Counted from the stretch's first letter, positions 6,001 to 24,173 are shown. The stretch: 24,173 nt of DNA from Psammoneis japonica (GCA_008632985.1 QPGO01000014.1:820289-844461), one strand, 5' to 3'. Notes: a model not told the origin generated them from the letters alone. Made by a program: numbers and translations.

Positions 6001-7784
6001 GTGATGTACCGCTTTCCAATATAACAGTCTATGACAATGAAGGAGCCACGCCGAATCGAATCCAGGGTGACGTCAATAAAAACGATTTGCTTGATCTTGA
6101 CGAACAGTGGTATTTGTACAACCCGGCAGGGCTCAACAGGGCCAGTTCATCAACACTGGATTTGCATCGGGCCTTTTTGGTAATGTAGTGGTAAGCGATG
6201 ACGACTCGAGCTCTTACCAAGGAGTGGGAACCGACGCGCCGACGGCTGGGCCCACGACTGCAACGCCAACAGGCTCGCCTTCGCGGCTGCCAACCACGGG
6301 TGAGCCAACCCCCCTTCCTACGATAGACCCCGATCCATCCATCTCTATTCAAGCAACAGGAAATGGCTTTGATATCCTAGTTATTCGCCAAGGCGAGACC
6401 ATTAAATGGAGGTATCGAATCGTCAACACGGGCAACGTTGCCCTGTCCAATGTTGTTGTTACTGGAGGCGCAGATTCGTCCGATCTTGTACTTGGTTCTG
6501 GCGATTTGAATTTCAATAATGAGCTTGATCCTGGCGAAATTTGGGAGTATGATGTTGATGGTGTAGCCGAAATGGTTTGTTTAGCGTCGTGGGAAAGGTT
6601 TCTGCAGAGTACAATGCTGCATCCCTTTCAGCGGTCGACTCGAGTTTGTACTATGGAATAACGCCGGAACCAGAAATTGGCATTCAAGAGGAAGCCGACG
6701 CTGTTCTCAATGTTACAAAGTACACAGTCACAAATAATGGAGAAAGCCCGCTTTCAGATTTGCAATTTACTCCCAAACAAGGTGTAGAACTACCAACATT
6801 GATCTCTGGGGACCTCAATTTTAACGGTGAACTTGATGAGGGTGAGAGTTGGGTATACGAGGCTGCTGGTGTTGCCAGTTACGAAGAAGAGCCGGTTCTT
6901 GTGACTGCCATGGCGGAAGCGGCACGGAGATTATGGCGGTTCCCCTTTCCTACCTACCCGCCGATCCTCCACCCCCACAGAATGCAGGGGTGGAAATAAC
7001 CACCGTCATAAATGGAGAGGATGGTTTGATTGTTCCTGTAGGAGAAGAGTTGATATTTGAGTATTACATCTTCAATTCGGGTGATGCCCCTTTGACCAGC
7101 ATTTCCGTTACGGAGTTGCATGCCGGAGTAAATCCTGATTTGATAAATTCAGACTTAGCTGGTGACAAAAGTAATGTTGCTCTAGAACCGGGCGCAACAT
7201 TGATCTATCAAGCGACTGCAATCGCCCAGGCGGGTCTGCAAGAGAGCGTGGGCGTTGTCACGGCAAGTTACAATGACAATGCAGTGTCCGATCAAGACCT
7301 GAGTTCGTATTTGGGTATTATTGGTGGAGAAGACCAAGGCTGTCAACCAAGCGTTTGGATTAAATCGAAGCAGGCTTGGCAACGCTATCGGCCAAACAAC
7401 AAGTTTGACACGGTGTTTGGTGTCGAGGCCTTTCCTCGCAAGAGCCTCAACAACGTCCTCGAGCAAAGCGGGTCGGGTGCAAAACAGGCACTAGGCAGAC
7501 AGGCTGTGGCTGCGCTTCTAAATTCGGCCAACAACAGGGTTTCTTATGGACTGTCGACCAACCATGTCATTCGTTTGGTCAAGCAAGCGTATGAAGCCCG
7601 AGACTATCATGAGGCAAAAGCGATGCTGAAGCGGCTCAACAAACGGACGTGTCCGTCTCGTATTGGCAGTGAAAATCTCCCGCCCACCCGACGTCCAACT
7701 CCTCGCAGAACCAGGCGACCGCGACGCAATAATCGTTCCAAGGGAGGAAAGGGTGGCAAAGGAGGCGGTGGCCTTCAACGGTAA
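3..7784 (+). CDS. Giant cell-surface/extracellular mucin-like adhesin candidate (>2500 aa, 5' end probably outside the window): N-terminal globular part, ~1500-aa PSxx stalk, six DUF11/DUF7507-like Ig-type repeats, a bacterial-type C-terminal domain and a basic/Gly-Lys tail
   Basis: The frame of ORF 147..6188 is open from base 3 (DETINILSSLENLKQ...), so ATG147 is probably internal. ORFs 6107..6661, 6577..6999 and 6849..7784 continue the same repeat-domain protein if one base is restored at each of ~6110 (tgg[g]ta), ~6572 (gaa[a]at) and ~6919 (gaa[a]gc). Recurrent motifs are Y-x-I/V-x-N-x-G-N-V-x-L-S-N and GDxNxNxELDxGExWxY/F. It ends ...RPTPRRTRRPRRNNRSKGGKGGKGGGGLQR-stop. Confidence 0.85.
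690..5240 (+). repeat. Coding tandem repeat: 12-nt (PSxx) unit with a 108-nt (36-aa) higher-order repeat in the homogeneous core (~1650-3960)
   Basis: Translation is continuous P-S-x-x. The unit PSTSPSAVPSSAPSDVPSTSPSDQPSDVPSVQPSTV recurs, and 'acaagcccgtcagcggtcccgagt' recurs at 108-nt spacing. Shorter PSGQ-containing variants are interspersed. Confidence 0.95.
5250..7320 (+). repeat. Six ~105-110-aa Ig-like (DUF11/DUF7507-type) domain repeats with acidic DxNxNxxLD loops
   Basis: The repeats start near ASVIFQISTNG, PSLSVNLSTYD, PSLKLTLLTNG, PSISIQATGNG, PEIGIQEEA and AGVEITTVING. Each contains NxG(N/D/E)xxLxx(I/V/L) and a (D/E)x(G/N/D)(E/A)x(W/L)x(F/Y) motif. A PT-rich linker lies between repeats 3 and 4. 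Family assignment is by motif recall, not a search. Confidence 0.7.
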
Positions 7785-8068: not shown

Positions 8069-9615
8069 CAAGGATTTATAAGTCTGTCAGGATGTACAAG
8101 CTCCGGTACAAATCTACGCACGAGCCTGTTGCCATGCGTGGTACGAACACCGTTAAAATTTGTGCTGCGTTTTACGGCAGTCTACGTAGAGCTTCTGACG
8201 GGACGAACTTATCATTTATAAATATTCATGCACAAATATCATAGATACCTCGAAGACGAAACGTGATGGAGGGGAGAAAACAGACGGCACACGAAACGTG
8301 ATGGAGGGGGGATAACAGACGGCACGAAATGTGATGGTGCGGGCGGTGGCGGCGTACGTGGATGAAGACAGAGACGAAATGGAATATCAAATATGGTAGC
8401 TCTAAAATCTGCCGCCGATTGCCAATCAACCCAATGACTGATTGATTGTTGTAATGATGAGTGATGATGTATGCTGCTGTAGTTCGCCAAATTGTCATGT
8501 GTTTCGACAAGCGCTGATTCACGCTAATGATCCACTTTGGGGTCGCCCGCTGGCAAGGATACGCGTGACGCAAAACACACGATGCAAGCGTCTCGTCCAA
8601 AGCATTGTCCATTACTTGAAGCCCGAGAGAAGCACTAAAATTTTATGCATTGCCCCTCATCACTGGCCAAGAATCAAAATAAGACACCACCTAGATGGGA
8701 AAGATAGAGATGGAGAATGATATTGTTAGTTTGTTTGTCATGCCGGTACTGTAAATGCATGATGCATCAATACTGCTTTAAATGTAAACATACCTTATTG
8801 TACACATCCTTCAGAAGTAAACTGCACGAGATTCCAGCCCGCTCGCTCGCATTCCAATCGCAGAGTCTCCACGCCACCAAGATTTACCCCAGTTTTCGGT
8901 CCCCGAACGAGGGAGTACTACTAACCGGCACTCGGCAAGGTCATGGACGTCAATATCCAACCCATTGCACATTATAATTGTCATTATTCGTGAAAGTATC
9001 AACTGTAGCTTGCTTGGTTCAGTCCAAAAGAGAGCGTAGGACACACCACAGCCCCGTTCCGATATAAGGAAGAACATGAGTTGAAAAGAAATGGTGTCGA
9101 CACCGACACGAAACTATGAGATATTGTTCGTCCGTAGGGGTGATACATTGCTCAACAGCTTCTCTATATGAGTTATAAAGACGAACATGTCAAAAAAAAT
9201 GAGTGAGATGCCGAAACAAAAGCACAATATAATTCGATTGCGACAGAGAGCGATAATGAGTCTCGAACCGTGGTGTCAATACAAAATCCTTTTTCCACCT
9301 TACAATTGGCCGCTTACCTTCGAAAAAGCAACATAAGCTGTTTCTATATGGAGATAAAGACTAGTAGATAGCGTTGGTACTGTTGAAAGGATCGTCAATA
9401 GTCTAATAAGCGGCGCTCCGGTTATCATGGTGTGTGGTGCTTTGATGAAAATGATGCGCGATCCCTTGAAAAAATGAGGATATACAAAATATACATAAAT
9501 TTATTTATTTTAACGGCGGAGTTCGCACCGTCAAGATTACTTAGAGGCTGGTGACCACGCATGGCAACACGCGTTCTACGCAGCTTGTACATCCTGACAG
9601 ACTTATAAATCCTTG
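8069..9615. mobile_element. Non-autonomous cut-and-paste DNA transposon (1547 bp), hAT- or P-superfamily-like
   Basis: Perfect 34-bp TIR caaggatttataagtctgtcaggatgtacaagct at 8069-8102, with its reverse complement at 9582-9615. Identical 8-bp TSD accgggcc at 8061-8068 and 9616-9623. Further inverted blocks are tgttgccatgcgtggt (8127-8142 / 9554-9569) and ccgttaaaat (8150-8159 / 9507-9516). No transposase ORF is recognisable. Confidence 0.93.
8256..8340 (+). repeat. Subterminal tandem repeat (~33-35 bp x 2.5) inside the TIR element
   Basis: acgaaa(c/t)gtgatgg starts at 8256, 8291 and 8324. The first two copies continue with ...aacagacggc. Confidence 0.8.
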
Positions 9616-9627
9616 ACCGGGCCAATA

Positions 9628-11030
9628 CATCCAAAAAAATCTACCCTCAGTTCTACCCTGTACCGTAGAGAGTAGTACTCATCCTACGGGGAAGAAGACC
9701 AACCCGTAGCCATCAGTATAGAAGCTACGTGCTAGTAATCAACCTACGCAAACCCCACGCGAGGAGTTGAACCCGAAAAAAAACTCCAAGACGAAGCGAG
9801 CGACGCTCAAAAAACACCGCGCCCTCACCTTGACCATGGCCTTTGAATGGTTGTGTTTGCACTCATTACAAAGCCCGCATTTTGGGCGTTTGATGCTTTT
9901 TTCTGAGGCACAGCTTTTCTCTCACTTTTTCTATTGTTTTGTGGTCGCTCATAGGTCTACCCGGCACCCATTGCAGCGACGGCATGAACACCGCTAAGGA
10001 TCAATATGACTATGGAAAAAAATGATGCTTGCAGTGGATTTGTTGCTGCTCCTCACCTCTTGGGTGTTTCGCGACTTTTGCTCCCAGAGAGGACACTGAC
10101 AGGACTGCCGCGTCTGACACAGTGGCATTCATAATCAAGCTCGGCTTCGGACTGCAAAGGTAAGAACAACAAAATTTGCTAATAATAATGTCGAATATGT
10201 GATGGAAATGTTTGTTTGTTGTACACATCTCATGTTTTGTGCGTTTGATGATTGTCAAGTGTGGCGCAGTTTTTTCCTCACAGTTTCTCCTGTCTCGCCG
10301 TCGCTGACAGGCCCACTCGGCACCCATTGCAGCATAGGTGCCAAGGTGAATACGGACCAAATAGTTATAAAAAAATGTATCTCAAGCCAAGGATGCGGAA
10401 CAATCTATTTAAAGATCAACGGCAGCAACCCTTGGTCGTGCCTTCCGCGCTAGGGAGCAGCTTGTTTTCTTCTCAAGCTGGTGGAAGTGCAATGAGGTGC
10501 TGATTGTTCCTTAGGCTAATGCAATTGTTTAGTAATATTTAAATATAAAATTCACAACAGTAATCTCAAATAGGTGCTTTAGAGCTTGTCAAAGTTGAAA
10601 GTAGTGCAAGTCGTTCGTCTGCTTTCCCACAGGGAGTGTGAAGGTTTCTACTGCACTCAGGACGCCTGTGAGTGCTGCTTGCCATGCCACCATAGATGCA
10701 GTTGGCATTGGTGCAGTTGCCGGGGTTGCATACGGCAACGCTCATGGTTGAGATGCCGCATTGAGACGAGTAGAACTTTCGAGTATTTTTTTTGTTCCTC
10801 CCGTCGCACTCGACATCACGCACCAAGGACAGACTGTTTAGATCGCGCGAAAGGGGCGCGCAGGGTAGAATTTTTGGCTCCGAAAATTCTACTGTACCTT
10901 CTACCTGAGTGGAATAAACAGTGGATGTACGGTAGATCTTTTTAGAAGATGCCAACACCGTATTGACATTTTTACATACGAGAATTCCACTTTCCAGTAG
11001 AAAAATGCTACTTGGGTAGAATTTTGGGTG
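9628..11030. mobile_element. Probable second non-autonomous TIR element (~1.4 kb) with a TA target-site duplication (Tc1/mariner-like ends)
   Basis: The left end ta|catccaaaaaaatctaccc (9626-9646) resembles the reverse complement of the right end gggtagaattttgggtg|ta (11014-11032), which reads ta|cacccaaaattctaccc. Clusters of TCTAC/GTAGA motifs lie at both ends, e.g. ttctaccctg 9651 and cagggtagaa 10861. The TIR is imperfect and no transposase is seen. Confidence 0.5.
9907..10333 (+). repeat. Diverged ~70-bp direct repeat pair
   Basis: 9907-9977 (ggcacagcttttctctcac...gtcgctcataggtctacccggcacccattgcagc) aligns with 10263-10333 (ggcgcagttttttcctcac...gtcgctgacaggcccactcggcacccattgcagc). Confidence 0.7.
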
Positions 11031-11069
11031 TAACGGTGCGGCACATCGAATCTCTAGAGAGCAGAGAGT

Positions 11070-12540
11070 GCGCCTGTGGAGGCCGTCACCAAAATGCAAA
11101 AGGATGCAATGTGTGCAAAACAAGCAGAGCAGCATTGCTGAAATTTTAATTGAATGTGAGCGAGGGAAACACACCTTGTTCCATCCATGAGGCTCAAGAA
11201 TCCATCCGCGGATGACTGCCAGATGTCCCCAATGGGAAGACAGTGGTGTCAGCCTGCCTGTCCTGACTCACACGCCCCACAAGTGCTCGCTCAACCCAAG
11301 TCAGCAGCTGATGTGAGGCAAGATGACTCTGCCACAAACACCTTGCACCACACCACCACCCACAACAAACATCTGAGACAGTCAGAACCCAGTGCAAGCA
11401 TGCAGGCCTGGTGCCAGAGCTCAGGTTCTGAACGTTGCATGTCATCACACCCTTGTGGGCTCCAGCTGTGCAATCACACAAATTCTGAACTGCACACATC
11501 TCACTTTTCACCCCATTTTTCATCTCTTCTTTGACAAAAGACAGTGCGCTGTTGTTTGTTTGCAGGACATTGCAGCCATTGCTGGCAGCAGCACGCTTCT
11601 TGTTTTGTTTGATGATGTTGTTGGCGTGCTCCCAGAGTGTGCTGGTGGCAAAAAGATGTGCAATTTTCTGAGCATCGTTGTGCAACTCTGATTCTCTGTT
11701 TCCAATGAAATGGTGTCATTGGGGAAGTGCAAACAATTGTCAAAAACAAAGAGTTTGAAGTGGAGCAAAAACTTTGTGTGGGTCAAAACACACTTCAAAA
11801 TGTTTTCAATTTGTTGTGTGATGCCAGTGATGGAGCAAATTCACCTTTTTGTTGCTGACAAAACAGTGTTGTTTTGACAAATGGCATGTCATTTTCATTG
11901 TGATGTTTTTTAAATGCATTTGTTGACTTTGTGATGCACAACTGTGCCACCTTGAAGATGTGCACCTCAGCAGCCACGACCCATGCTGTCACAGAACCAC
12001 AGGACAATGTTGGCTGGTGCCACATGTTGGTTTCCGATTTTTAACCTTTTGGGAAAACAGCTTGGCAGCCTCATGTTCTTGACAAGCATTTGTCTTCTAC
12101 CTGCCCTGAGATGACTGCAAAATGATTGGATGAGCCACTGCAATTAGAAAGTTTGTTTCCTCCTCCTGTTGGCACAAACGGTGAGGTGCTCACAATGCTG
12201 CATTTTGACACAACTGAGCAACCACAAAGTCTGCTCAAAATGGCATGATGCAGGGGCAGAAGTCACTGCCACTGCTCCTGCCTGGGTGGACAGTCATTTG
12301 GTTCAGGACAGTGTTGTTCCTTTGTTGTTTGATCCACTTCGGTGGGGCAGCACCGGACAGTGGCACCAACCTTGGCCAATCATCACAACATGTTCCCACT
12401 GCACAATTCTGTGTGTCGCTGGTGCAGGTTAGCGTGTTGCCAGAGTTGCTGGGTAGAAGCATTGCAGCAGCACCTAAAATGTGGACTTTGTTTCTTCTTG
12501 TGTGCCAGGCGCCACGTGTCATTCCAGTCCTTTGCGTGAG
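11070..12540. other. TpA/CpG-depleted, TpG/CpA-enriched hypermutated block (degenerate repeat or pseudogene relic)
   Basis: Manual count gives 8 TpA in 11101-12540, six of them in YTAR context. Overlapping Cys/His-rich, essentially Tyr-free spurious ORFs occur on both strands. Normal TpA density resumes at ~12553. Confidence 0.85.
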
Positions 12541-12653
12541 CTCTGGTGCGAATTATGTTGTGGGTAGTTTTAGTTGTCAAGCACTAACACGCAAAATAAA
12601 GTACCAGGCATTAATTTCTAACCGGCAAGCAAAGGAAAATGTTATTGAGTCTC

Positions 12654-14550
12654 TCAAGGAGAGGCAAAGGTGCTGAAAAATGTTTGCCATTCGGGTTCTG
12701 CCAGAATTGTCTTAGAATCAATCCAACAATAGATTTTCCTGTTGACCTTCTTGTCAAAACGCTTTCGAAGTTTCTCTGGACGTTTCGGATCTGGCGCTCC
12801 CAATTCAGCATGTTGATCCAAGGCAAGTGATTTGGTGAACAAGTCATTTAGAATGCCGTCTTCTGGACAAAGCATGCGCAAATCCAGAGCGGTTTGATTC
12901 ATTTTTTCTTGATGTTTCATTATTGCATTGATAACATTCGGTCGACTCCACAATGTGGTATCAATCAGGCCCGCCCGATTGGCGTCCAATGCCAAACCGC
13001 TGTAATACAGCCAATGAATGTTGCCCTTGTTTTCAACAGATTTTGAGCCTCCTTCAGCGTCACGTCGCATAATTTCCTTGCATGAAGCGGGAGCAGCACC
13101 CTCAAGCATGTCACACACAAATGCCGAACGCAATCCCTTGGGGTTGTTCAAGTCCAGAACTTTGACAGGGAAATACTTTGAAGCCATGTCCACTATAGAA
13201 TCAGTAAACCAGTTGAGCGTCGAGATCCAACCGGTATATACGCCCCAATCGTTGTTTTTGTCTGCAAACAGTGGTTGCACATAATGCTTTTCGCCCTTGT
13301 CGTCTATCCACGGAAACCTTTCGTCATAGCTCAACTCAGATGATTGCCACCAAACAGAGGGCACCCATTCAAAATATGGTCGATAGCCACTAATAATGCT
13401 GACGTCCCAGTCCTCCTTGGTAATTTGATATAGTTTTTCGTACTGTTTTTCATCATGTAATAGGACGATTGAATACCCTTCCTTAGATAGAATGATGTTC
13501 CTGCCGTAGTGTTTAAGATGGTCTAACTCTTTCGCCCAAAGGTCAAAAAAGTTTGATCGTCAAAAGGAATGTTACTCAATTCAGTACCCATGACCGTGCC
13601 ATCCTGAAACGTGTGTTCTTCATTCACATAATGCCAATTGTCTTGTTCCAAGAACCCATGCCAAGCCAATTCGGTCAATGCAGCTTGGACTGTAGTCGTT
13701 CCCGTTTTCGGAGGTCCAACGTGTAAAACAAGTCGTTGCTTTCTTTTGGATTTTGCGACTTCAACCTTGTCACTTGTCTCAAAAGATTGTTCATCCTGAA
13801 TTAGATTTGCATTACTGACAGGCCTCAAATCATTTCGCTTTTGTTTTGGCCGTTCTCGCCACCTATCGTCTCCGGCAATTTCGCATCAAGAGCCATGTTA
13901 GTAGGCGCCCCAGGTGGTGTATCTTGTTCATCTTTTGTCATGGACGGTTTCACGGCTTCTACCGCAACAGCAGGGTTCAAGTCGCTAGCTTCCACAACCG
14001 CGGGGGCAGGAGCACCAAGAGGTGGTGTATCTTGTTCGGATTGTGCGACTTCAACCTTGTCACTTGTCTCAGAAGCTTGTTCATCCTGAGTTGGATTTGT
14101 AGGTACTGCTGCTGCATCACCCGCACGCCTCAAATCGTTTCGATCTTTGTTCTCACCAGCTATCGTCTCTGGTAATTTCGCATCAAGAGCTATGTTGGTA
14201 GGCACATCACGTGGCGTATCTTGCTCGTCTTTTTTCATGGACGTTTTCACGGCTTCCACAACAGCAAGGTTCAAGTTGCGAGCTTCCGCAACCGCGGTTT
14301 GTTCATCCAGTTCCTTTTCTCCAGCTGTCGACTCAGAAGTTGGTGGATCAACGGGGGTATCGCCAATTGCTGCAAAAATCGCTCCGATCTGTTCTGTGGG
14401 ACGCAGGCATGGAAACGAAGGCACAATTGGAGCTCCAGCTTGTAGAACCAATAGCTGAGAGTGCAGGATGATGTGCAGCACAGCACCTGCATATAGCGCC
14501 AAATAAAGAAAGTGTTTCGAGAAACGTCGGTTTGCTGTTTGAAATGTCAT
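12654..14550 (-). CDS. Type II membrane-anchored sulfotransferase-like (P-loop) protein with a duplicated acidic stem; two apparent frameshifts
   Basis: ORF 13825..14550 has an N-terminal hydrophobic anchor (HFLYLALYAGAVLHIILHSQLLVL). ORF 13523..13828 has RLVLHVGPPKTGTTTVQ, a PAPS-binding-loop-like motif. After a shift at the homopolymer ~13545-13550 the frame reads FDLWAKELDHLKHYGRNIILSKEGYS...WDVSIISGYRPYFEWVPSVWWQ and joins ORF 12654..13364. The shift at ~13838 is supported by the intact first repeat copy (ENKDRNDLR). Confidence 0.75.
13750..14300 (-). repeat. Internal ~100-codon tandem duplication in the stem of the sulfotransferase-like gene
   Basis: Two copies of AV.EA..LN.AV.VEAVK.SM.KDEQDTP...PTN.ALDAKLPETI.GEN...RNDLR...QDEQ..ETSDKVEVA.S. 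Confidence 0.85.
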
Positions 14551-15263
14551 GGCTGAACAAGAGGCGTTGACGACAAGAACTCGCCACTCCTCTGCGTTTC
14601 TAAAACTTGCGCTTCCAAGAGCGGTCGGTGTTCACGGTTGCACGCACCCTCCAACCTCCAACCCAATCGCAGAAAGCAGTCCTCTTGCAGATTAACGGCT
14701 AGACGTACACTCGTTATCGATTTTGAATATTACAGTATATCCATTTGGTCAATCAATGTGCTAAGAAATGAATACATATATATCATTTATAACATCTACG
14801 TAAATAATTGTGTCAAATACTATTGAGATGACATTGATTCACAACGTCCGTCACGCGTGCGTCGAACGAGAACTGGTCTTCATTCATCCTGTCTTCGTTG
14901 CGCGTGAACGGAGCACGGAGCGCTTATTAGTACTTGCTTTTTGTGCTACACAGTACACAGTGTAACCGAATGAAACCTTACCGGTGCATGCCATATAACT
15001 TTTGTTGGTCACAATTGGGCACACAAAGTCGGTGAGCGACCAGCGAATTACAGACATAAATGCAATTTGATTGGCTCAAAATACAGCCTGATATGAACTG
15101 AACAACGAGCAGCGCACGAAAGGTGAGTCTTTGCTGGGCGATGATGGACGCGCAGTCTCCTTTTCAACTGCCTTTCTTATAGAAAGGAACCTTATTTTTT
15201 CATTGTTACTTGATCGCTGCTTTTCTAAAACTTGCCGTTTTTTCAAGACATTCTTTTGCGACC
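14551..15263. promoter_or_regulatory. Divergent (head-to-head) intergenic promoter region
   Basis: Lies between the minus-strand ATG at 14550 and the plus-strand ATG at 15264, with an AT-rich core at ~14720-14840. The call is positional inference only. Confidence 0.4.
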
Positions 15264-17189
15264 ATGAGTAATCTTCTTGGCTGCAGAGAACAAAAGACAA
15301 GGAAGCTTACCGCAGACGCTCAACTGCAGTTCGAAAATGAGCAGGCAAGGCTTGTAGCTCGCGAAAAACGCAAAAAAAGTCGAGCTGCAACTGCGACAAG
15401 TATAGCAGCAGGTACAGCTTTAGTTGCGCCGGCTATACGGGACACTGGCTCTAAGAAGAAATCACCCACAAACAGCTCGGTAGTAGACAGCCCCGTTGTA
15501 GTTGATGCATCTGAGGGAAAGAGCTCTGAAGATGATGCTTCTCGGGATGTATCCTCGAACCTAGAAAACGCCTCAAGTGACTTGGGCAAAGGAAGGAGGA
15601 CAAGAAAACTTACCGTTGAAGCGCAGTTGCAACTTGAAAATGAGAAAGAAAGGCTTTTAGCTCGCGAAAAGCGCAAAAAAAGCCGAGCTGCATCTGCGGC
15701 AAGTACAGCAGCAGGTACAGCAGTAGTTGCGCTGTCTATGAGGGACACTGGCTCTGAGAAGAAATCACTCACAAACGGCTTGGTAGTGGACAGCCCCGTT
15801 GTAGTTGATGCATCTGGGGGAAAGAGTTCTAAAGAGGTTGCTTTTCGGGACGTATCCTCGAACCAAGAAAACGCCTCAAATGTCTTGGGCAAAGGGAAGA
15901 GGACAAGAAAGCTTACCGCGGAAGCGCAGTTGCAACTTGAAAATGAGCAGGCACGTCTTGTAGCTCGCGAAAAGCGGAACAAAAGTCGAGCTGCGGCAGG
16001 TACAGCGGGCGGTGGCGGCGTTGACAGTGCTGTCGACGGTGGCGCAAGAGACAATACGGCGAAACTCAGTTCCAGAAAAAGAACTGAATCAGACAGAAGC
16101 CCAGATACCGGAGCGCAGAAGATGCCCGCGTCCAAACGCCAACGCAAAACAGCAAGCGTCAAAAAGCCGCGAAAGACTGCTCCCAAACTAGTCGGAAATA
16201 GTACGACAGAATCGGAGAACGACGAGGGCAGCGAATCCACTTCCAGCGCGAATACACCCCCCGCAGCCGTGGCAACCAACGGGATAACGATTGACTTGTC
16301 GTCAACTCATCAACCAGATCCCATGGTGACGTTGCTCGCTCATGAGAATGCGCTCAAAGCGCAGCGAGACGAATTACAGAGAGAGCATGCCGTTCAGATT
16401 GCTTTTTTGAAGCAAAAGCACCAGGCTGTAATTAATGCACTAAGGGACAAACTCGAGCAACAGGAGTTTGACAAGCGCAGGAAACTAGTGGCGAGAAACG
16501 ACAAACTGCAAGCCGAGCTGGCCGAAAGCAACAAGAAACAAAAGGCGGACGCAAGGAAAGTCAAAAAGATGGAAAGAGAACTCGAGCAGCTAAAAGATGC
16601 AGACAATGGAGATCCGCGAAGGCGAAAGCGCAAACTGAGTGTCAAAAACAGTCAGCTCTGGGACCAGCGATTTGAAGAGCTAAAAGCCTACAAAGCTTCT
16701 CATGGAACCTGCCTCGTACCAACAACACAGTACCCGGAGCTTGGTTATTGGGTTTCTCGGCAAAGGACGAACCAAAAATTGTATGCGAGTGGAAAGGAAT
16801 CCTCAATTACATCCGAACAAATTCAGAAACTAGACAGCATTGGAATGGTTTGGGGGAACCTTCTTCATCGCAGTGTGTCGTGGGAAGAACGGTACCAGCA
16901 ATTACTCGATTACAAGGCAAAACACGGGCATGTCCGTGTTCCTCATTTGCTTAAGGAGCCTCACGGTCTTGGAGAGTTTGTGCAAGCTATGAGGAGCGCG
17001 TACAAGTCTCTAAACAACAATGACTCTACCTCGAAACCGCGGAAAATAACGCCGGAACAAGTGGAGAAGTTGGAAGCAATTGGATTTGAATGGTCCCTTC
17101 GCACGAGGGGTACCAAAGAGAAGCACAGACTTGCCGCGTCACTGGAGGAGTCGCAAGAGATTATGGAGGAACCTTTTCCTTTGCATTGA
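15264..17189 (+). CDS. Helicase-associated (HA, PF03457-like) domain protein with two C-terminal HA domains, a coiled coil and N-terminal repeats; probably nuclear
   Basis: Intact ORF, first ATG at 15264. HA motifs are WDQRFEELKAYKASHGTCLVP...LGYWVSRQR...QIQKLDSIGMVW and WEERYQQLLDYKAKHGHVRVP...LGEFVQAMR...QVEKLEAIGFEW. NLS-like basic runs include PRRRKRK and SKRQRK. No helicase motor motifs are present. Confidence 0.9.
   Translation: MSNLLGCREQKTRKLTADAQLQFENEQARLVAREKRKKSRAATATSIAAGTALVAPAIRDTGSKKKSPTNSSVVDSPVVVDASEGKSSEDDASRDVSSNLENASSDLGKGRRTRKLTVEAQLQLENEKERLLAREKRKKSRAASAASTAAGTAVVALSMRDTGSEKKSLTNGLVVDSPVVVDASGGKSSKEVAFRDVSSNQENASNVLGKGKRTRKLTAEAQLQLENEQARLVAREKRNKSRAAAGTAGGGGVDSAVDGGARDNTAKLSSRKRTESDRSPDTGAQKMPASKRQRKTASVKKPRKTAPKLVGNSTTESENDEGSESTSSANTPPAAVATNGITIDLSSTHQPDPMVTLLAHENALKAQRDELQREHAVQIAFLKQKHQAVINALRDKLEQQEFDKRRKLVARNDKLQAELAESNKKQKADARKVKKMERELEQLKDADNGDPRRRKRKLSVKNSQLWDQRFEELKAYKASHGTCLVPTTQYPELGYWVSRQRTNQKLYASGKESSITSEQIQKLDSIGMVWGNLLHRSVSWEERYQQLLDYKAKHGHVRVPHLLKEPHGLGEFVQAMRSAYKSLNNNDSTSKPRKITPEQVEKLEAIGFEWSLRTRGTKEKHRLAASLEESQEIMEEPFPLH
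15285..15995 (+). repeat. 303-nt (101-aa) tandem repeat x ~2.3 in the N-terminus of the HA gene
   Basis: TRKLTx(E/D)AQLQxENExxRLxAREKRxKSRAA occurs three times, with 'cttaccg' at 15306, 15609 and 15912. Confidence 0.9.
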
Positions 17190-17753
17190 TTGGGTGATGT
17201 ATTTGGAACGGCCAACTGGAACAACGGCTTACGATTCAACGCGTTTTCAACGAGTCGACAGGGAACCCTGGTAGAGTGTTGTGTAATTGGATCGGGGACG
17301 TGTGGGGAAAAACAGTCGAAAAAGGGAGAATGTTGTCCAACGCAGAAATTCTAGAGGCTTTGGGCTAGAAGAGCAAACAGCTTGCAGTTCAATTGAGTAG
17401 CAGCACGGGATTCCATATGTTTTATCGGCTTATGCCTTTGTGCAATTCAATCATAATTGATGCTGGTTGCCCGGAAGAAGAAAACATAGATTTCACGTTG
17501 GAGCCATCGTTTTGCTTGTGTCTCGCTTTCTATGCCTGGTGTTCGTACAATCTCGTTCTCTAGTTGGTTTCATGTTGGCTAAACGTTCGTCCTTGTAATT
17601 GATTGGCTGTGTTCAGGTAAGCGCAAAAGTATTGGGACGACTCGTTTCGAGATTCAGGAGTACACCTGGGCCATCACGCATCGACATGTCTGATTTGAAT
17701 CGAGCACTGCCTCTTTGCTACGTCTGTTTGTACTTCATTTCGTGAACCCGTCG

Positions 17754-19369
17754 TCATTTCCGTTTGCGAAACGACCCTACATTCCAGCTACACTTCAGCT
17801 CTCCTCCGATCCATTTCAAGCTCATCCTCGGCTGCTTCCAGAAAACCACCAAAACTTCGTCATCCTCTTCTTTCTTCAAATCATCAGCTTCACCAAGAGC
17901 CAATAGCTCATCTTCTTCATCATCCGAAAGAACGTCGGAGCCAGGCGGAGCTTTCATGATGCGTTTCGTCTCCTCGAATTCCTCCTGGGCCGTCTCGATC
18001 GCTTCAACAAGACGTTCGTTGCGTTCCTCTAGTGTCATGGCCGCTTCCTCCTCAGCGCGTTTTCTCGTATCAGCTTCATCCGCTTCTTCTCGAGTAAAGC
18101 CTTCATCTGGCAATATGAAATCGTCAATTCTACCTTTAGCAAGATTCTTGTACGATATCGGCATGACATCTAAACAGTACATCCACCTCATGGATGCGGC
18201 ATTCGTCTCGGCGATAAGCGTATTCACAACCAGTGGGTCGTCACCCGCCAAAAGTTTTCATTGTGAAAGGGATCAAGGAATCGCTTGGCAAGATCAAAAG
18301 ACCTTGAAAGCACAATGTCATGAGTCCGGATCCCATGAGAGTCAAAATAGCGACGATCCTCGAGTCACAGCAACAAAGGGATACATCCACAAGACGGCAT
18401 CCACGAGGACTTGGACAAAGTGAGCATACGCAAACGGCATGCGACCCTTGAGAACAGATTCCATCGAATTGCCTTGAGCCCGAATTTCCTGTATTTTGGT
18501 AAGCAAAATTTGTTCAAAACCAAAGCCACCATCAATAATGCCAGCCTTTTGACCTTCCAGTACGAGTCGCAAGATCCACATTAAAACCGCATTGTGACGC
18601 TGATTTGGCGGAATTTTCGCTTCAATCAACAGAGATCGTTCCTGCGTTGTCATGAGTCCTCGTGAAACCATTCGCCTCATCCCTTGAGGCGTCAAGAGTG
18701 GTCGATGCGAGCGAGTCAGAGACGCGTAGACCAATATATTAAAGAGTCGGATATACCGAGCCGTGATTGTCAGGGTCCGTCGAGCATTTTCAGAAAATGT
18801 GGAACTTCCAGGAGGAGTTCATCCGAGCGCTGGCTAAAGCCTGCAAGCGCCAATATCAAATCATTCATTTTCCCTTGCAGAGCTCTACATGTCTGTAGAC
18901 AAGTGCGCCAGATTTTGTAGGACTGATTGACAAAAAAGGTCAACGTGAAAGTCGTCACAGATAATACTTGCATGTAAAGCGAGGAGAATTCTGTCAGAGC
19001 ATAATGAAACAGCGGCGTCCGTTTCATGCACACGTATACCGCAACAGCCCAGAGAGTACCTCGGAGGCAAGAAACCCACGTTTCTGCAAATACGGTTCCT
19101 CTGTATTGACTCCACATGGCTTTACTGGAAGGCTCAAATTGAATCATAATGGGTCGACGGCCACTGGTTCTCAAACAATCATCAAGAATACCATCTAGAA
19201 TTTCTTTGGTAGATGTCTGTTCCATAAGGATTGGCTCTATGTTGAGGACTCGTAAGCTGCTCGAGAGTCGTGACGAGTGACATGTAGAAAAGGCCTCCAC
19301 AGTAGCAGTGCATAGGAGAAGCATCCAAGGCGACATGAACACTCGTAAACGACAACATCGTGCCTTCAT
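17754..19369 (-). CDS. Plastid-targeted bestrophin-like (UPF0187/BST-type) anion channel; several apparent 1-bp frameshifts
   Basis: ATG 19369 gives MKARCCRLRVFMSPWMLLLCTATVEA|FSTCHSSRLSSSLR, a signal peptide + Phe + Ser/Arg transit peptide. Bestrophin-like motifs are TTFTLTFFVNQSYKIWR, ARYIRLFNILVYASL, MPFAYAHFVQVLVD and FQGLFDLAKRFLDPFHNE. The frame is restored by single-base additions at ~18820, ~18358, ~18297 and ~18250. A further one at ~17855 would give the end SFGGFLEAAEDELEMDRRRAEV with a stop at 17788. Confidence 0.82.
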
Positions 19370-20344
19370 TCTTGCTACAACTTGCAACAAACAGAGAGAC
19401 TAAAGACAACACAACATTGGACATTGCGAGAGAACCGAGAACCGAAAAAAAAAAACAAAGAAGATCATGTTGCGGTTTCAGTCACGAGTATCCAAGAGTA
19501 AAATTGCCGTCCTGAGATTTTTTCGAATTCTTGAGCGAAAAATGCATTTTTTGAGTGCAAGCACCTGGCTTTGAGTGCAATCCCCAATGGGAAACAAAAG
19601 CAGGCTGGAACTTGAAATGGAGGTGGCAAGCTTTGGCTTTTGTCACCAAAGGCTTTGTGTGCACTTCAGAGACACAAACCCAAGTTAAGATTGTGTGTTT
19701 GAGCATTTCAAGGCCTCACCATTTTGCCCTTGTCAGCTGTCACTTGTGATTTTCCAGAGGCCCATCTGGTCAAGGTGTTTGGGGGAGCTCCTCAAGGTGA
19801 GCACCATGAGAATTGTGTGCACTGAGCCATCATTCTGAAAAAGCACCTTCATGGCAAGGAAGATCTGTTGCCCCAGGACTTGAAGACACACACACCCAAA
19901 GGCATGCACTGGGTCTAGCGTGGGCCTGCATGTGGCCAACTGCAAGATGCAGTTTGATTGTGAGGCACCACAAGTGCTTGGCGGGGGTTCCGTCTCACAA
20001 AATCATGACAATTGTCAGGCCAGGCCAATTTGCAACCCCGATGGGATGATTCCAAGCTTGCGGGGCAGTGTGTTGCAATGGTGCGTCGCAGCACTTCTGC
20101 TCTTTTTGTTTGTGGTGAAGTGGCAGTTCCAGGTCTGTCACATGCACGGCAATCCCACTGTTGCAAATTAAATTGTCCTGTTGTGATTTCAGTTTGGCTG
20201 TCTGTGAACAACAGGGGAGCTTCGCTTGTTCTTTCCCGTGTTTGTGCTGTGAAGGTCACTCATCTGAGTCTGTGTTGGCCTTGAAGGACCCATTCTTGAT
20301 TGACCCAATGGCGAGTGGCAAGGATTGTTGAGCACAAAAGTCCT

Positions 20345-21211
20345 TCATCCATCCCCTCTGTTTCCAATTCTTTCACCCAACAGGACATTGTTGCAGCCAA
20401 GAAAAAGGGAGCAGCAAGTTTTGGCCACGTCATCGTCCTCCGACACATGGCACGCTTCAACGCTGTCTTTGATTTTCTCACAGAGAGTCTCTGCATGGGC
20501 CACGGCATCATTGCCGACTTGATTGGATTCACCAAGTGGGACAGCCCTGGATGTGATGTTGCTGAAAAAGGAAAGGGTCAAGGATGACAATGCCGCCTCG
20601 GCCAAGTTGGAGCATTTCTTGTTGCTGACACTGGCCCAACAAACGGAAAAAACAGCATCCACCCAGGTGTTCAAGGCGCTCGGATGACTGAATGCATGGC
20701 TCTTGATGCATGTTGCAGCAACAGACTGCATGTCTGTCTCCACCAAGCCACACTCATTTTGACTCCGATGCATCCAAAACCTGTGTAGAATCCAAGCCGT
20801 GTGCAAGATTTCAACACCCTCTTGGAGTCTTTTCATGATCTTGCAACTGTCATCGTGCAAGAGGAGGCAAATTGCATTGTTGAATCCATCGGTGTGGTTT
20901 GCAGCTTGATGGGCAACAGCACCATCCATTTCTTGAGTTGCAAAGTCAAGCTCATCAAAGGTTTCACGTAAATTGTTGAGAGGCATTTGCATGATGCCCT
21001 TCACAGCGAGAACAAGACACTTGGCATTGCATTTGATTTTTTCTTTCATGTGCGGACATGCATGTTTGTGGCCACCACATTCCCAGTCTTGCAACTGACA
21101 CTCTTTTGAGCAGCAGCAAGTGGAATGGCAATTGCTGCATTTGAACCGGCTGGACACCTTGAAGCATCGACAACACTCGGGTGGCACAACCGGCATCAAA
21201 TTCAAGAACAA
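20345..21211 (-). pseudogene. Hypermutated MYND zinc-finger gene relic
   Basis: CCRCFKVSSRFKCSNCHSTCCCSKECQLQDWECGGHKHAC matches the MYND consensus CxxC...CxxC...YCSxxCQxxDW..HK..C, but the conserved Tyr is Cys. There is no Tyr in 288 codons, with excess Cys/His. Confidence 0.8.
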
Positions 21212-21467
21212 ACAAACGTGTTGCGATCATTTGCACTTCAGAATTTTGGATTTCCAAAAAAATCATCGCCGCATCAATTTCAGTGACGACCGTTAAACTG
21301 TGTCCCATTTGCTGTGTTTTGCACATTTTTGAACTTGTTCATGAGAAGTGATGGTCACCATGATGTGATGGTGAAAACAGAAATGCATCTGTGCATTGTG
21401 AATGCTCCCCATGAAGAAACCACAGGTGAATGATCATGGCTTCCCCACTTTTTGCGGGCAGTGGTCA

Positions 21468-22478
21468 TCAACGGATCTTTTGGCATGTCTTTGAAAGAGT
21501 TGAAATCGTTGATGTTGGGTGCCCCCCTTGTTGCATCAACGTCTTCATTTCCATCCATGCGTTTTTTGTGCTAGAGAGCGCACAAAAGAGCAGTTGGCAA
21601 TGTGATTGGCATGCAAAACAGAAGGTTGATGAGTGAATGAGATTGGCGTGACAGTGCAAACAAAATCTGGAGAATTCAGGATGGATTGAAGAATGAAAAG
21701 GACCAAAGCATTGAGAAGCATTCATGCTGGTCAATTCAATGCAGCCATTTGCCAGGTGAGTTTGTGTGAAAAAATGACAACTCCTCTCCAGTGTGCTCAG
21801 AATGCAGACATGAGGAGAAGATGATTTTGTGTTCTCTCTTCCCAAACAAGAAGTCATGGTGCCATCCAAGATTCCATCTGGCAGACCTTGTCTTTTGTTC
21901 ACACTGCCCCAGGAGACCCATGCTCCATTGTTGACACTGCCCGCGCCTGCAATTAGACACATGCAGAGTCATTCAGCTTGACCACCATGTGCGCCAATTC
22001 CAGTTTGCGTGGATCTTTTGCTGCTTTGAAAAATCAAGAATTGCATCTCTCTTCCCAACAAGGGCTTGGGTGCAGCAAAGTGATTCAAAGCAGCGTCAGA
22101 AGCATGGCATGACTCGATGAGCTCGTCCCAATGGGCCTTCTTGGTGCACTCTTGAAATTTCTGGATCTTTTCCCGTGTCCTTTGTTCAGCAGATGACGTT
22201 GTGTTTTCTTTTTCAGTTTCTCTCTCTTCTCAAGTGTCCGAAGGATTTGTTAAAGTTGGAGGCACTTTTTCAAGAATGGACTGTGTCTCCCTCACATTCT
22301 TTCCCAGTTCCCATGCATGATTGATGCTGCACGCTGTCACATTTTGGCTGCACTGTGCTTTGTTCAAACAGCAAAGAGCAAAAGCCACAAAATTGCCAAC
22401 TTGACTGCAATCCTGATTGCAGCTCGATTGCGAACCGCAATCAAAACAATTGCAATCTGCTGATTGTTTGTCTGGCAC
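21468..22478 (-). pseudogene. Second degenerate reading frame of unknown product with in-frame TGA stops
   Basis: ORFs 22230..22478 and 21468..21962 are in the same frame. The gap reads SDT*EERETEKENTTSSAEQRTREKIQKFQECTKKAHWDELIES...GGQAE*LCMCLIAG, which is protein-like with TGA plausibly from CGA. Long open frames are cheap here because TAA/TAG are nearly absent. Confidence 0.4.
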
Positions 22479-22733
22479 TGGTCACAAAGATCACAATCGT
22501 GTTCACAATCAATTGCAATTGATTCGTGTCTAAAATTTTGTTGTGAATCAGGATTTTTGGCAAAAACGGGACCAAAAATCAACCGAAACGTGGTGTTCAT
22601 TCACCAGAAATGCGTTCTTGCATTTGTCAAGTTGTTTTCTCACCATTTGTTGCTGCCATGCCAATGGATCTGATGCTTGGTGCTGAGGTTAGAAAAGTGG
22701 CAGAGAAGTGTCAACACCCATTGGCACAGTGCC

Positions 22734-22932
22734 AATGCTGGGGTTGTCAAAGTCACAGAGTGTGTGGAGTGTGGAGCCCTCAAGAAGAGAGTCAGAGCTG
22801 GAAAATGTGGTGGCTGTTGTGGTTGTTTTGCTCAACAATGCTGGGATTGTCAAAGTCACAGAGTGCATGGGGCCTTTGTGAAGAGAGTCAAAGCTGGAAA
22901 ATGTGATGGCTGTTGCAGCTGTTTTGCTCAAC
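22734..22932 (+). repeat. Tandem duplication (~103 + 96 bp) within the hypermutated block
   Basis: aatgctggg(g/a)ttgtcaaagtcacagagtg...aagagagtca(g/a)agctggaaaatgtg(g/a)tggctgttg..g.tgttttgctcaac at 22734-22836 and 22837-22932. Confidence 0.9.
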
Positions 22933-24173
22933 ATCAAGCATGACATGGAAAAAGCAGCGCATCATCAGGAGCAGCACTTGAAAATGGCAACTTCATTCAG
23001 CCAGGGATGTTGGTCAATGCAAAGTGTCAGAAGTTGGCATCTGCTGCTCCTTGTGATCACCTGCTCCATTTTGTGGGTTTGGCTCATGCAGGTGCACTTC
23101 AAACACAGGAAGGTGAGCCCAAGCAGAAAGCCATGGTCTCATGACATTGGTCTGCGGTGTCAGAGTTGGGCCCACATTTTTAACCCCAAAGCTGCTGAAT
23201 GCAAACAAACCCAAAGTTGGAACAAGCATGTCAACATTGGAGCCAACCACAAGTTGATGCCAGCAAATTTGGGTTTTGGTCCAGGACACGGAGCCTTGCC
23301 CTCATTTTCACAATTTCATGAAGACTTCTCTGACAAAGTCTTTTTGCATGCATGGCCAATCCATCAACATGGGCAACAGGTTCAAAGTTGATGCAGAAAA
23401 AGTTTGTTGTGTTGTGTTGTGTTGCAACAGGTCCAAAGTTGGAAGCAAAGCTGTGAGCTGCAAAAGCGAGCACACAAAATGAAGGCTTGTTTTTCACCTG
23501 CGTTCCAATTTTTTGCTGCAGAGGTGAGCAATGTTCCCAAATGTCTTTGCACTGGGAGCTTTGTCAACATGGAAATGCTGTCATCTTGAACAGCCAAGCA
23601 CTTCTTCACAGATTCCAACAGGTCTGCAGTTCGCAGCTGTTGCAAGACATTGCTTGTTGGCTGAAGGTCTGAAATCCAAGGCAGTGTCTGGAGCCTTGTG
23701 CTGCACATCAGCGGTGGTTTTGGGCTGTTGTCAGTTGGTGCAGCCAAAGGAGGCAAAACACAGGATGTCTCTTTTGTGGAAGCAGCCAGGCAGAAGCCAC
23801 CAAGGAAGAAAACAGTCACTCACCCTCTTGAGGCAACAAGGTTTTTTTCAAAAAGCGAGACAGATCTTGCTTCTGCCACTCTCAAAGTTGTGTCTGAAGC
23901 CCCTGCTGTGAGAACCCAGCCAAGCAAGACAGCTGGAAAAGCCACTTTGGAAAACAACAACAACCAAGCTGGTGCTGCATGAAAAAAACTCTTGGAATGG
24001 AGTGCTTTGTTTTGGCAAGGGGGGGGGGGGCATTCTTTTCTCGTCATTGTTCATGCTGACTTGCCCAAACTGCATGTTTTCCAGCGGCTGCACTTTTTTT
24101 AAATTTTCACTTGTCAAACAACTTGCTTGATGCTGTGCAAAACAAGTGTGCCACCCAGGGCTGGCCAAAGTTG

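Follow-up and report, generated by a model that had tools for sequence, protein, structure and literature searches.

How does a sharply delimited stretch of nuclear DNA with plenty of A and T come to lose nearly all of its TpA dinucleotides, and in which direction did its sequence change? The locus that raises this question lies at the end of a 24,173-nucleotide region of Psammoneis japonica (the window, i.e., the whole stretch of DNA that was analyzed), where the initial annotation had counted 13 TpA by hand in positions 19501 to 24173, against the few hundred that base composition would predict, and had described ordinary TpA in the adjoining DNA together with reduced CpG and dominant TpG and CpA. 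The program count returned exactly the same 13 TpA and agreed with the other observations, and a further block of the same kind, absent from that annotation, was found upstream.

Two TpA-erased blocks with sharp edges

The annotated block (block 2; 19501 to 24173, without strand assignment, and extending past the window end) comprises 4,673 bases, including 1,202 A and 1,283 T, and its 13 TpA compare with 330.0 expected from composition, giving an observed/expected ratio (o/e) of 0.039. Mononucleotide shuffles of the block (n = 2,000) contained 330 TpA on average (standard deviation, 13.5; lowest value, 288), and even if TpA were as frequent as in the remainder of the window (o/e 0.58), 191 would be expected, for which the Poisson probability of 13 or fewer is 5.7e-64. 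CpG is reduced to 80 occurrences versus 255.7 expected (o/e 0.31), TpG and CpA rise to 522 (o/e 1.67) and 491 (o/e 1.82), respectively, and AA/TT are enriched (o/e 1.37/1.32). Outside the blocks, the window is ordinary in all these respects, with o/e values of 0.58 for TA, 0.94 for CG, 1.17 for TG, and 1.20 for CA. The additional block (block 1; 11148 to 12429, likewise without strand assignment) contains 4 TpA versus 88 expected (o/e 0.045; P = 2e-17), with o/e values of 0.22 for CG, 1.94 for TG, and 1.92 for CA.

The left edge of block 2 is sharp, as TpA occurs at 19489 and 19499 and then not again until 19686, and the longest TpA-free runs reach 919, 764, and 617 bases inside the blocks versus at most 145 outside. 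Furthermore, the o/e values of CpG and TpA covary along the window (Spearman 0.66; 48 windows of 500 bases). Inside the blocks, CpG o/e ranges from 0.07 to 0.57 alongside the gain of TG/CA, and the loss of CpG is less complete than that of TpA. The blocks are also without TAA or TAG stops in any frame and hence present long false open frames, which makes TpA-erased DNA of this kind a matter of concern for gene annotation.

Agreement with a DNA read run

The initial annotation had named a base-calling artefact on modified DNA as an outcome that would overturn its reading. We compared the window with a DNA read run (X1) in the form of k-mer contigs; 40 of the 600 differences between the window and X1 are listed. 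X1 may be the window's own assembly sample, so that it checks the reads and not a second individual, and its platform is not on record. Its contigs match block 2 over 19387 to 20799 and 20773 to 22172 (2.8 kb) with no differing letter; elsewhere, they differ from the window at 8 to 10 sites per contig, and X1 is therefore no copy of the window consensus. In block 1, a single contig (11211 to 13102) spans from the block into ordinary DNA, with nine differences in the block 1 part, all of them transitions, and one outside the block. Among the differences listed, block 1 accounts for 9 in 1,219 bases, all transitions, and the flanks for 9 in 4,551 bases (3 transitions and 6 transversions), so that block 1 and the flanks differ both in density (Fisher p = 0.006) and in the share of transitions (p = 0.009), at most a hint of a raised mutation rate in the block.

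The two contigs over 19387 to 22172 have depths of 30.5 and 34.6, versus 60 to 69 for neighboring contigs; depth here is not copy number, and the lower values might reflect diverged haplotypes. Farther along block 2, more read contigs align over 22299 to 24173 (no strand assigned), the part with the lowest CpG (o/e 0.07 to 0.25), where the summed X1 contig depth, again not a copy number, is 146 to 286 versus 35 to 74 over 19461 to 22298; this greater depth suggests the existence of related copies elsewhere. Diverged read contigs over 20437 to 21067 and 21782 to 22322 are likewise candidate paralogues.

A decayed MYND-finger gene in block 2

An indication of what block 2 once encoded comes from a gene relic on the minus strand (20411 to 21181), whose open frame (20348 to 21226) comprises 293 codons without a single Tyr. 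A phmmer search with this frame retrieved 61 relatives at E <= 1e-3, 6 of them at E <= 1e-10, and a profile built from 12 relatives matches the relic with an E value of 3.6e-35 over profile positions 51 to 312 of 385; positions 1 to 50 and 313 to 385 were found in no frame, and the relic is not full-length. The zf-MYND domain (PF01753) is present in all five of the top five relatives, and the corresponding Pfam model gave no match on the relic frame at E <= 1. The zinc ligands C18, C21, C30, C33, C39, C43, H53, and C57 (seven Cys and one His) are nevertheless invariant, the relic included. By its predicted finger ligands and C-terminal similarity, the relic is a member of the zf-MYND family with a C-terminal domain of approximately 250 residues. 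No match to the 293-residue frame came from a word-based homologue search, and scans of metagenome contigs with the same frame found three loci, limited to the MYND finger, and no close paralogue; viral contigs yielded 36 giant-virus loci, and in almost all of them the match is confined to the finger.

All three conserved Tyr columns of the family are changed in the relic, Tyr38 to Cys (TGC) and both Tyr106 and Tyr177 to His (CAT), and Arg173 and Arg244 likewise read Cys (TGC) and His (CAT). Altogether, the invariant or near-invariant residues D19, Y38, K49, R155, D170, R173, and R244 are replaced, and the overall composition is shifted with respect to the mean of the relatives (Tyr, 0 versus 5.3; Cys, 25 versus 11.5; His, 15 versus 5.8; Arg, 9 versus 21.5). 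The relic departs from the family at 59 conserved columns, 19 of which need a single transition (6 TA to TG/CA, 5 CG to TG/CA, and 8 other), while the remaining 40 need more than one. Since identity to the relatives is approximately 24% and most of these columns are multistep, much of the divergence is ordinary and old. The presence of a decayed copy of a MYND-family gene implies that block 2 once had ordinary TA-containing codons.

Direction of change, strand balance, and sequence context

When the blocks are compared with flank rates, the losses of TA and CG equal the gains of TG and CA in both of them (block 2: TA -178, CG -159, TG +157, CA +168; block 1: TA -47, CG -52, TG +63, CA +56). 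Block 2 contains similar numbers of TG and CA in an interleaved order (runs test z = -0.5) and hence shows no strand bias. Within the same block, a tandem duplication of approximately 100 bases (22733 to 22933, plus strand) allowed us to align two copies, which show 12 transitions among 13 differing positions; three TG-versus-CA doublets, each at the same dinucleotide, account for six of these positions. These doublets place the change after the duplication, and as aligned they are readable as independent outcomes at one site. One further TG/CA doublet separates the window from the X1 allele at 11561 to 11562, and, among the differences listed, the alleles differ in place at TA/TG as well as at TG/CA sites. 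Taken with the relic, these comparisons support a probable direction from a TA-bearing ancestor to TG/CA.

The surviving TpA are unevenly distributed among trinucleotides (ATA/TAT, 0; GTA/TAC, 3; CTA/TAG, 10; TAA/TTA, 21). In particular, 14 of the 17 survivors in the blocks lie in a YTAR context, versus 130 of the 685 TpA elsewhere (Fisher p = 5e-8), which indicates that TAY is the preferred target. The strand-symmetric conversion of TpA to TpG/CpA put forward in the initial annotation, operating together with CpG decay, is consistent with the mass balance, the Tyr to Cys/His changes of the relic, the doublets between copies, and the random interleaving of TG and CA. Its placement in repetitive DNA fared less well, as a TIR-bearing element (8069 to 9615) and a stretch with many read contigs aligned (10001 to 10946) both keep ordinary TpA and CpG.

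Comparison with known systems

A TpA-restricted hypermutation of integrated viral DNA has been described in the chlorarachniophyte Bigelowiella natans (Mettrop et al., bioRxiv 10.64898/2026.01.13.699255). According to the main text of that preprint, in two hypermutable regions 230 of the 231 single-nucleotide mutations replaced A with G or T with C, each of these at a TpA, and the rate in mutation-accumulation lines was approximately 6e-7 per site per generation, about 1000-fold above background; TpA-poor coding sequences have a mean TpA frequency of 0.0018 and are enriched in a zinc-finger family. The same text proposes adenine deamination, without proof, and cites reports of DNA editing by amphioxus and trypanosome ADAT2. 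The initial annotation had stated that no described pathway with this signature was known to it in diatoms; our literature search found no report of TpA-loss hypermutation in diatoms, in line with the statement as worded, but the mutation class itself had already been measured in B. natans.

As far as that main text describes it, the hypermutation signature of B. natans is matched by the sequence of the window blocks. Both systems convert TpA to TpG/CpA on either strand, and four consecutive 1-kb windows of block 2 (20001 to 24000; Rho_TpA, 0.01 to 0.05; Rho_CpA+TpG, 1.71 to 1.80) pass the B. natans cluster cut-offs, while in block 1 only two windows do. However, different from the B. natans NCLDV region, where TpA o/e is 0.45, the window blocks are saturated (0.04), and the loss of CpG coincides with that of TpA, whereas the term CpG is absent from the main text of the preprint, which also reports no YTAR-sparing rule such as that of the window. 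The B. natans target is integrated viral DNA, whereas the window blocks gave no sign of viral or transposon content, and its mutations were observed de novo, while those of the window are known from sequence comparison. The host is also different; for three open reading frames of the window, no near-identical protein was found (best identities, 33 to 66%). As a lead in line with a probable diatom origin, an HA-domain cluster is most frequent in Bacillariophyta (score, 0.81).

Fungal RIP turns CpA into TpA and thereby raises TpA. The window resembles it in showing a regional, sharply bounded transition hypermutation that has ruined a gene copy, with probable related copies elsewhere, but the blocks erase TpA (o/e 0.04; CpA/TpG, 1.82/1.67), with a net change from A:T to G:C; RIP was rejected, as the raised TpA and lowered CpA/TpG that it predicts are the opposite of what block 2 shows. 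The decay of CpG through 5-methylcytosine is similar in its CG depletion (o/e 0.31 and 0.22 in the blocks) with gain of TG/CA, but cannot remove TpA. In tRNA, TadA/ADAT2 naturally act on A34, which follows the invariant U33 and forms a 5'-UA step with it; the TAY preference has a likeness in the UAC of bacterial tRNA-Arg, and TadA-derived base editors exist. The window itself, in contrast, carries no deaminase gene. Retroelement editing by APOBEC/ADAR (PMC4866542) shares the production of clustered transitions in genomic copies by an enzyme, but it is strand specific and tied to reverse transcription, whereas the changes in the window are strand balanced and in place.

Proposed mechanism and alternative explanations

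The reading that we favor, with a probability of roughly three in four, is an in-place TpA to TpG/CpA hypermutation of the two blocks, most likely through domain-targeted adenine deamination. In this reading, mutation in place would have struck two stretches of eukaryotic nuclear DNA with sharp boundaries, with nearly every TpA becoming TpG or CpA by A:T to G:C transitions on either strand at random, and with 65 to 90% of the CpG in the blocks also becoming TpG/CpA. A putative enzyme, directed to a chromatin domain that bears a mark, would deaminate the adenine of 5'-TA to inosine, to be copied as G, fastest in TAY and slowest in YTAR, while CpG would be lost in the same domain through deamination of methylated cytosine; alternatively, CpG may have been lost from this chromatin through a separate, unrelated process. 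This form of mutation, locally aimed and barely known, may disable unwanted DNA.

The same in-place conversion could also be thymine sided or repair driven, giving T to C, for instance through 5-hydroxymethyluracil placed at TpA by a TET/JBP-type oxygenase and mispairing with G, or through excision with error-prone patching. Since TpA is self-complementary and TAY reads as RTA on the opposite strand, the same context rule would be expected of a process acting on thymine, and the erasure of TAY with sparing of YTAR reads equally as erasure of RTA; the strand-symmetric outcomes agree with this route, and 5-hydroxymethyluracil is found preferentially at TpA in dinoflagellates. We nevertheless consider it unlikely, as the window bears no sign of modified thymine, a WA rule of the Pol-eta type would deplete ApA too, whereas AA/TT are enriched, and the sole experimental study, in its main text, proposes adenine deamination, although itself without proof. 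Misreading of modified TA and CG as TG/CA by a long-read base caller would produce the same Tyr to Cys/His pattern and mass balance, and the lower X1 depth over 19387 to 22172, with a platform not on record, is compatible with it. An artefact of this kind is very unlikely to explain the loss of TpA, because the X1 contigs reproduce 2.8 kb of the block exactly, bridge block 1 into ordinary DNA, and carry other differences that set them apart from the consensus; moreover, a strand-specific miscall would give CA or TG according to the read strand and not a fixed random interleaving.

Hyper-editing of RNA from A to I by an ADAR-like, UA-preferring enzyme, followed by reverse transcription and insertion, would find some agreement in the preference of ADARs for U before the edited A (bioRxiv 10.64898/2026.01.13.699255, main text) and in the truncation of the relic, which, as a partial retrocopy might, lacks 50 positions at the start of the family profile and 73 at its end. 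Edits in a retrocopy are expected on one strand (TA to TG), and an ADAR-type edited retrocopy was rejected in view of the balanced and interleaved 522 TG and 491 CA; furthermore, the erasure spans at least 4.7 kb, including nongenic DNA, and a second block, the differences listed between alleles lie in place, and the loss of CpG would be left unexplained, all of which makes this route highly improbable. It is scarcely credible that the composition is native, whether the DNA came from a TA-avoiding foreign source or TA was selected against to avoid a nuclease or insertion site. MYND fingers are indeed found also on giant-virus contigs, but Tyr codons, and with them TA, persist in relatives of the relic at the columns where the window reads Cys or His, the doublets between tandem copies point to a change after duplication, and the loss of seven invariant or near-invariant residues makes selection unlikely. 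We know of no genome with a TA o/e near 0.04.

Returning to adenine deamination in place, it is possible to hypothesize, although we regard it as doubtful in this full form, that a chromatin-guided, TadA/ADAT-like DNA adenine deaminase pathway acting on 5'-TAY beside cytosine methylation is common to a rhizarian and a stramenopile lineage of SAR, distant from each other, and mirrors fungal RIP in the A:T to G:C direction. If so, TpA, along with Tyr codons and TATA-like signals, would be permanently erased from the chosen DNA. So far, there is a single report of targeted A:T to G:C hypermutation in nuclear DNA, the 2026 preprint, which concerns one chlorarachniophyte; a saturated case in another alga, probably unrelated to it, would mean that the process is not peculiar to one species. 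The window adds two testable handles, namely, the erasure of TAY with sparing of YTAR and the exact colocation with CpG decay, and it makes the enzyme approachable by comparison, through the deaminases or base-modifying enzymes common to the lineages with this footprint.

Other content of the window

In the 115 stop-to-stop frames of at least 45 residues from both blocks, no match at E <= 1 was to a viral or transposon family, and none of the Pfam matches reached the gathering score. Matches to S-Me-THD_C (E = 3e-4, 20.6 bits) and DUF5332 (E = 6e-4) in the repetitive stretch 22233 to 22600 were set aside as due to chance or composition. Comparison of both blocks with the window by blastn and tblastx returned the tandem duplicate only, and Rfam and tRNA scans found nothing. 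As for the remaining read runs, no contigs of X3 were placed on the window, and those of X2 leave parts of block 2 uncovered, which says nothing on expression. X2 resembles spliced RNA, as it skips segments of 151 and 125 bases that have GT..AG borders.

TpA and CpG depletion in two blocks

In the stretch 19501-24173 (block 2, 4673 bases), only 13 TpA were counted against 330.0 expected from base composition (observed/expected ratio, o/e, 0.039), with a reduced CpG content (80 against 255.7, o/e 0.31) and a dominance of TpG (522, o/e 1.67) and CpA (491, o/e 1.82), which confirms the erasure of TpA described in the initial annotation. In 2000 mononucleotide shuffles of the block, TpA averaged 330 (sd 13.5, minimum 288), and at the TpA rate of the flanks (o/e 0.58), taken as all of the window outside the blocks, 191 would be expected (Poisson P(<=13) = 5.7e-64). 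The left edge is sharp, with the last TpA at 19489 and 19499 and the following one at 19686, and the right edge lies beyond the end of the window. Furthermore, we identified an additional block, absent from the initial annotation, at 11148-12429 (block 1), with 4 TpA against 88 (o/e 0.045, P = 2e-17) and o/e values of 0.22 for CpG, 1.94 for TpG and 1.92 for CpA. TpA-free runs extend to 919, 764 and 617 bases within the blocks, compared to at most 145 outside. The loss of CpG is confined to the same blocks (Spearman 0.66 between TpA and CpG o/e, 48 windows), where it is more variable and less complete (o/e 0.07-0.57) than that of TpA.

Reliability of the bases

If a base caller misread modified TA, the call would depend on the strand being read, CA on one and TG on the other, whereas TG and CA are randomly interleaved in the window. 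Three coded runs, all from one sample, were considered, and the DNA run X1, in the form of k-mer contigs, was compared with the window over 10001-24173; X1 is possibly the source sample (its platform is unrecorded), so that the comparison tests the reads rather than a second individual. X1 contigs over 19387-20799 and 20773-22172 differ from the window by 0 letters and carry the identical interleaved pattern, and a single contig (11211-13102, 10 differences) joins block 1 to ordinary DNA. Since long contigs show 8-10 differing sites each, X1 does not simply copy the consensus. The exact contigs and the random interleaving thus disfavor the base-calling artefact.

Direction of change

When losses and gains were scaled to flank rates, block 2 showed a deficit of 178 TA and 159 CG and an excess of 157 TG and 168 CA; the corresponding figures in block 1 were 47 and 52 lost, 63 and 56 gained. 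In the tandem duplicate 22733-22837/22836-22933, 12 of the 13 differing positions are transitions, and three TG-versus-CA doublets account for 6 of the 13. Similarly, the X1 allele reads CA at 11561-11562 and TA at 11345, in each case against TG in the window. Such differences between tandem copies and between alleles are independent outcomes at one site. Moreover, all 9 differences between X1 and the window in block 1 (1219 bases) are transitions, compared to 3 transitions and 6 transversions among 9 differences in 4551 bases of the flanks (Fisher p 0.006 for density, 0.009 for the transition share). Together with the Tyr columns of the gene relic described below, these observations lend indirect support to the proposed conversion of TpA to TpG or CpA.

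Diverged contigs over 20437-21067 and 21782-22322 indicate that related copies exist, and several of their listed differences present TA or CG where the window has CA or TG (21855, 21857, 21864, 22067, 22073). Over 19387-22172, the two exact X1 contigs are of depth 30.5 and 34.6, against 60-69 in neighboring contigs, and more diverged contigs also cover this interval; block 2 may comprise two strongly diverged haplotypes, depth not being equal to copy number.

A decayed zf-MYND family gene in block 2

For the open frame at 20348-21226(-), neither Pfam nor a word-based homologue search gave a match, and a full HMMER search retrieved 61 relatives at E <= 1e-3 (6 at <= 1e-10), with zf-MYND present in all of the top five. 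A profile built from 12 relatives matched 20411-21181(-) with E 3.6e-35 (profile positions 51-312 of 385), and the relic retains 7 Cys and 1 His as ligands of the MYND finger. All three conserved Tyr columns of the family are changed, to Cys (TGC), His (CAT) and His (CAT), while Arg173 is replaced by Cys (TGC) and Arg244 by His (CAT). Tyr is absent from the frame, against a mean of 5.3 in the relatives; Cys (25 against 11.5) and His (15 against 5.8) are in excess, and Arg (9 against 21.5) is in deficit. The relic differs at 59 conserved columns, 19 of which lie a single transition from the family residue (6 TA to TG/CA, 5 CG to TG/CA, 8 other); the remaining 40 need more than one, which makes it also an old, distant family member. 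The Tyr codons of the relatives show that intact homologues do carry TA, at variance with the possibility, raised in the initial annotation, of homologues equally free of TpA.

Beyond this relic, 115 frames of the two blocks yielded no viral or transposon domain. In giant-virus contigs, almost all of the 36 matching loci share the MYND finger only, and the match of three metagenome loci is likewise restricted to it.

Sequence context and spared repeats

The erasure in block 2 is strand symmetric (522 TG versus 491 CA) and shows no strand coordination (runs test z = -0.5). Strand-symmetrized counts over both blocks are 0 for ATA/TAT, 3 for GTA/TAC, 10 for CTA/TAG and 21 for TAA/TTA. In particular, 14 of the 17 surviving TpA occur in YTAR (8 TTAA, 3 TTAG, 2 CTAG and 1 CTAA), compared to 130 of 685 in the rest of the window (Fisher p = 5e-8); resistance is therefore highest at sites without TAY on either strand.

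Some repeats are spared, i.e., an inverted-repeat element (8069-9615) and the stretch 10001-10946, both with ordinary TpA and CpG. The former, whose 37-base inverted repeats (97% complementary) enclose 1473 bases, resembles a small DNA transposon and is TA rich (o/e 0.8-1.1), with normal CpG, having remained unerased at only 1.5 kb from block 1. In the latter, of ordinary TpA, the summed X1 contig depth is very high (1195-1380), and a contig of X2, a run that behaves like spliced RNA, omits 151 bases with GT..AG borders at 10157-10309; the stretch thus resembles a portion of an expressed multicopy gene.

Mechanism and precedent

We consider an in-place, locally targeted hypermutation of TpA to TpG/CpA, accompanied by CpG decay in the same domain, the probable explanation (roughly 75%). 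The chemistry we favor is the deamination of adenine within 5'-TA, which would be carried out by a TadA/ADAT-like enzyme; we infer this enzyme, as well as a targeting signal and a defense role. TadA/ADAT-like enzymes naturally target A34, the base that follows U33, which is invariant; in bacterial tRNA-Arg, the resulting UAC presumably resembles the TAY preference of the blocks. Since RTA and TAY are reverse complements, a route acting on the thymine side would predict an identical context rule; this route appears to us unlikely. The WA rule of Pol-eta fits badly, as ApA/TpT are enriched, and so does an RNA-edited retrocopy, given that the changes are balanced between strands and alleles differ in place.

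Hypermutation on TpA has a precedent in Bigelowiella natans, where, according to a 2026 preprint on a mutation-accumulation experiment (Mettrop et al., bioRxiv 10.64898/2026.01.13.699255), to our knowledge the sole published study of such a signature, two integrated viral regions mutate at a rate of ~6e-7 per site and generation. Of 231 single-nucleotide mutations, 230 are A->G or T->C, every one of these on TpA; moreover, 124 clusters are TpA poor and CpA+TpG rich, and an ADAT2-like enzyme is put forward as a candidate. Four consecutive 1-kb windows (20001-24000) satisfy the cluster cut-offs as set out there. The novelty of kind initially claimed has been overtaken by this preprint; the present blocks are a new, saturated case of a barely described kind of hypermutation, probably in a second major lineage. 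In the literature on diatoms and further algae, we found no report of such TpA hypermutation. The window does not stem from the B. natans reference, given that the best database identities of three window ORFs are only 33-66% and that the proteome of B. natans is public. Different from the main text of the preprint, which mentions neither CpG nor flanking context, our case contributes a context rule and colocated CpG decay.

Other features of the window

With TAA and TAG gone in 19400-24173, TGA is the sole possible stop, and the six frames contain 18 stop-to-stop frames of at least 90 residues on both strands, most of which are surely non-genes; a TpA-erased block is hence a pitfall for gene finders. 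Also in block 2, a run of 12 G (24014-24025) is of uncertain or variable length, since 6 letters are missing at 24025 in one X1 contig.

An open frame of 2061 residues (3-6188, +), starting beyond the window, contains PT-rich repeats (Pfam PT, E 2.7e-80) with periods of 108 and 72 bases and ends with a DUF7507, whose nearest Atlas clusters are bacterial; a second DUF7507 frame lies at 6849-7784. A gene with two helicase-associated domains (15210-17189, +, E 5e-37) includes a tandem repeat at 15296-15994 (303-base unit, 2.3 copies), and 15119-15245 is spliced out in an X2 contig. The protein with these domains is a weak pointer to a diatom host. The skipping of introns bounded by GT..AG in X2 contigs indicates eukaryotic DNA.
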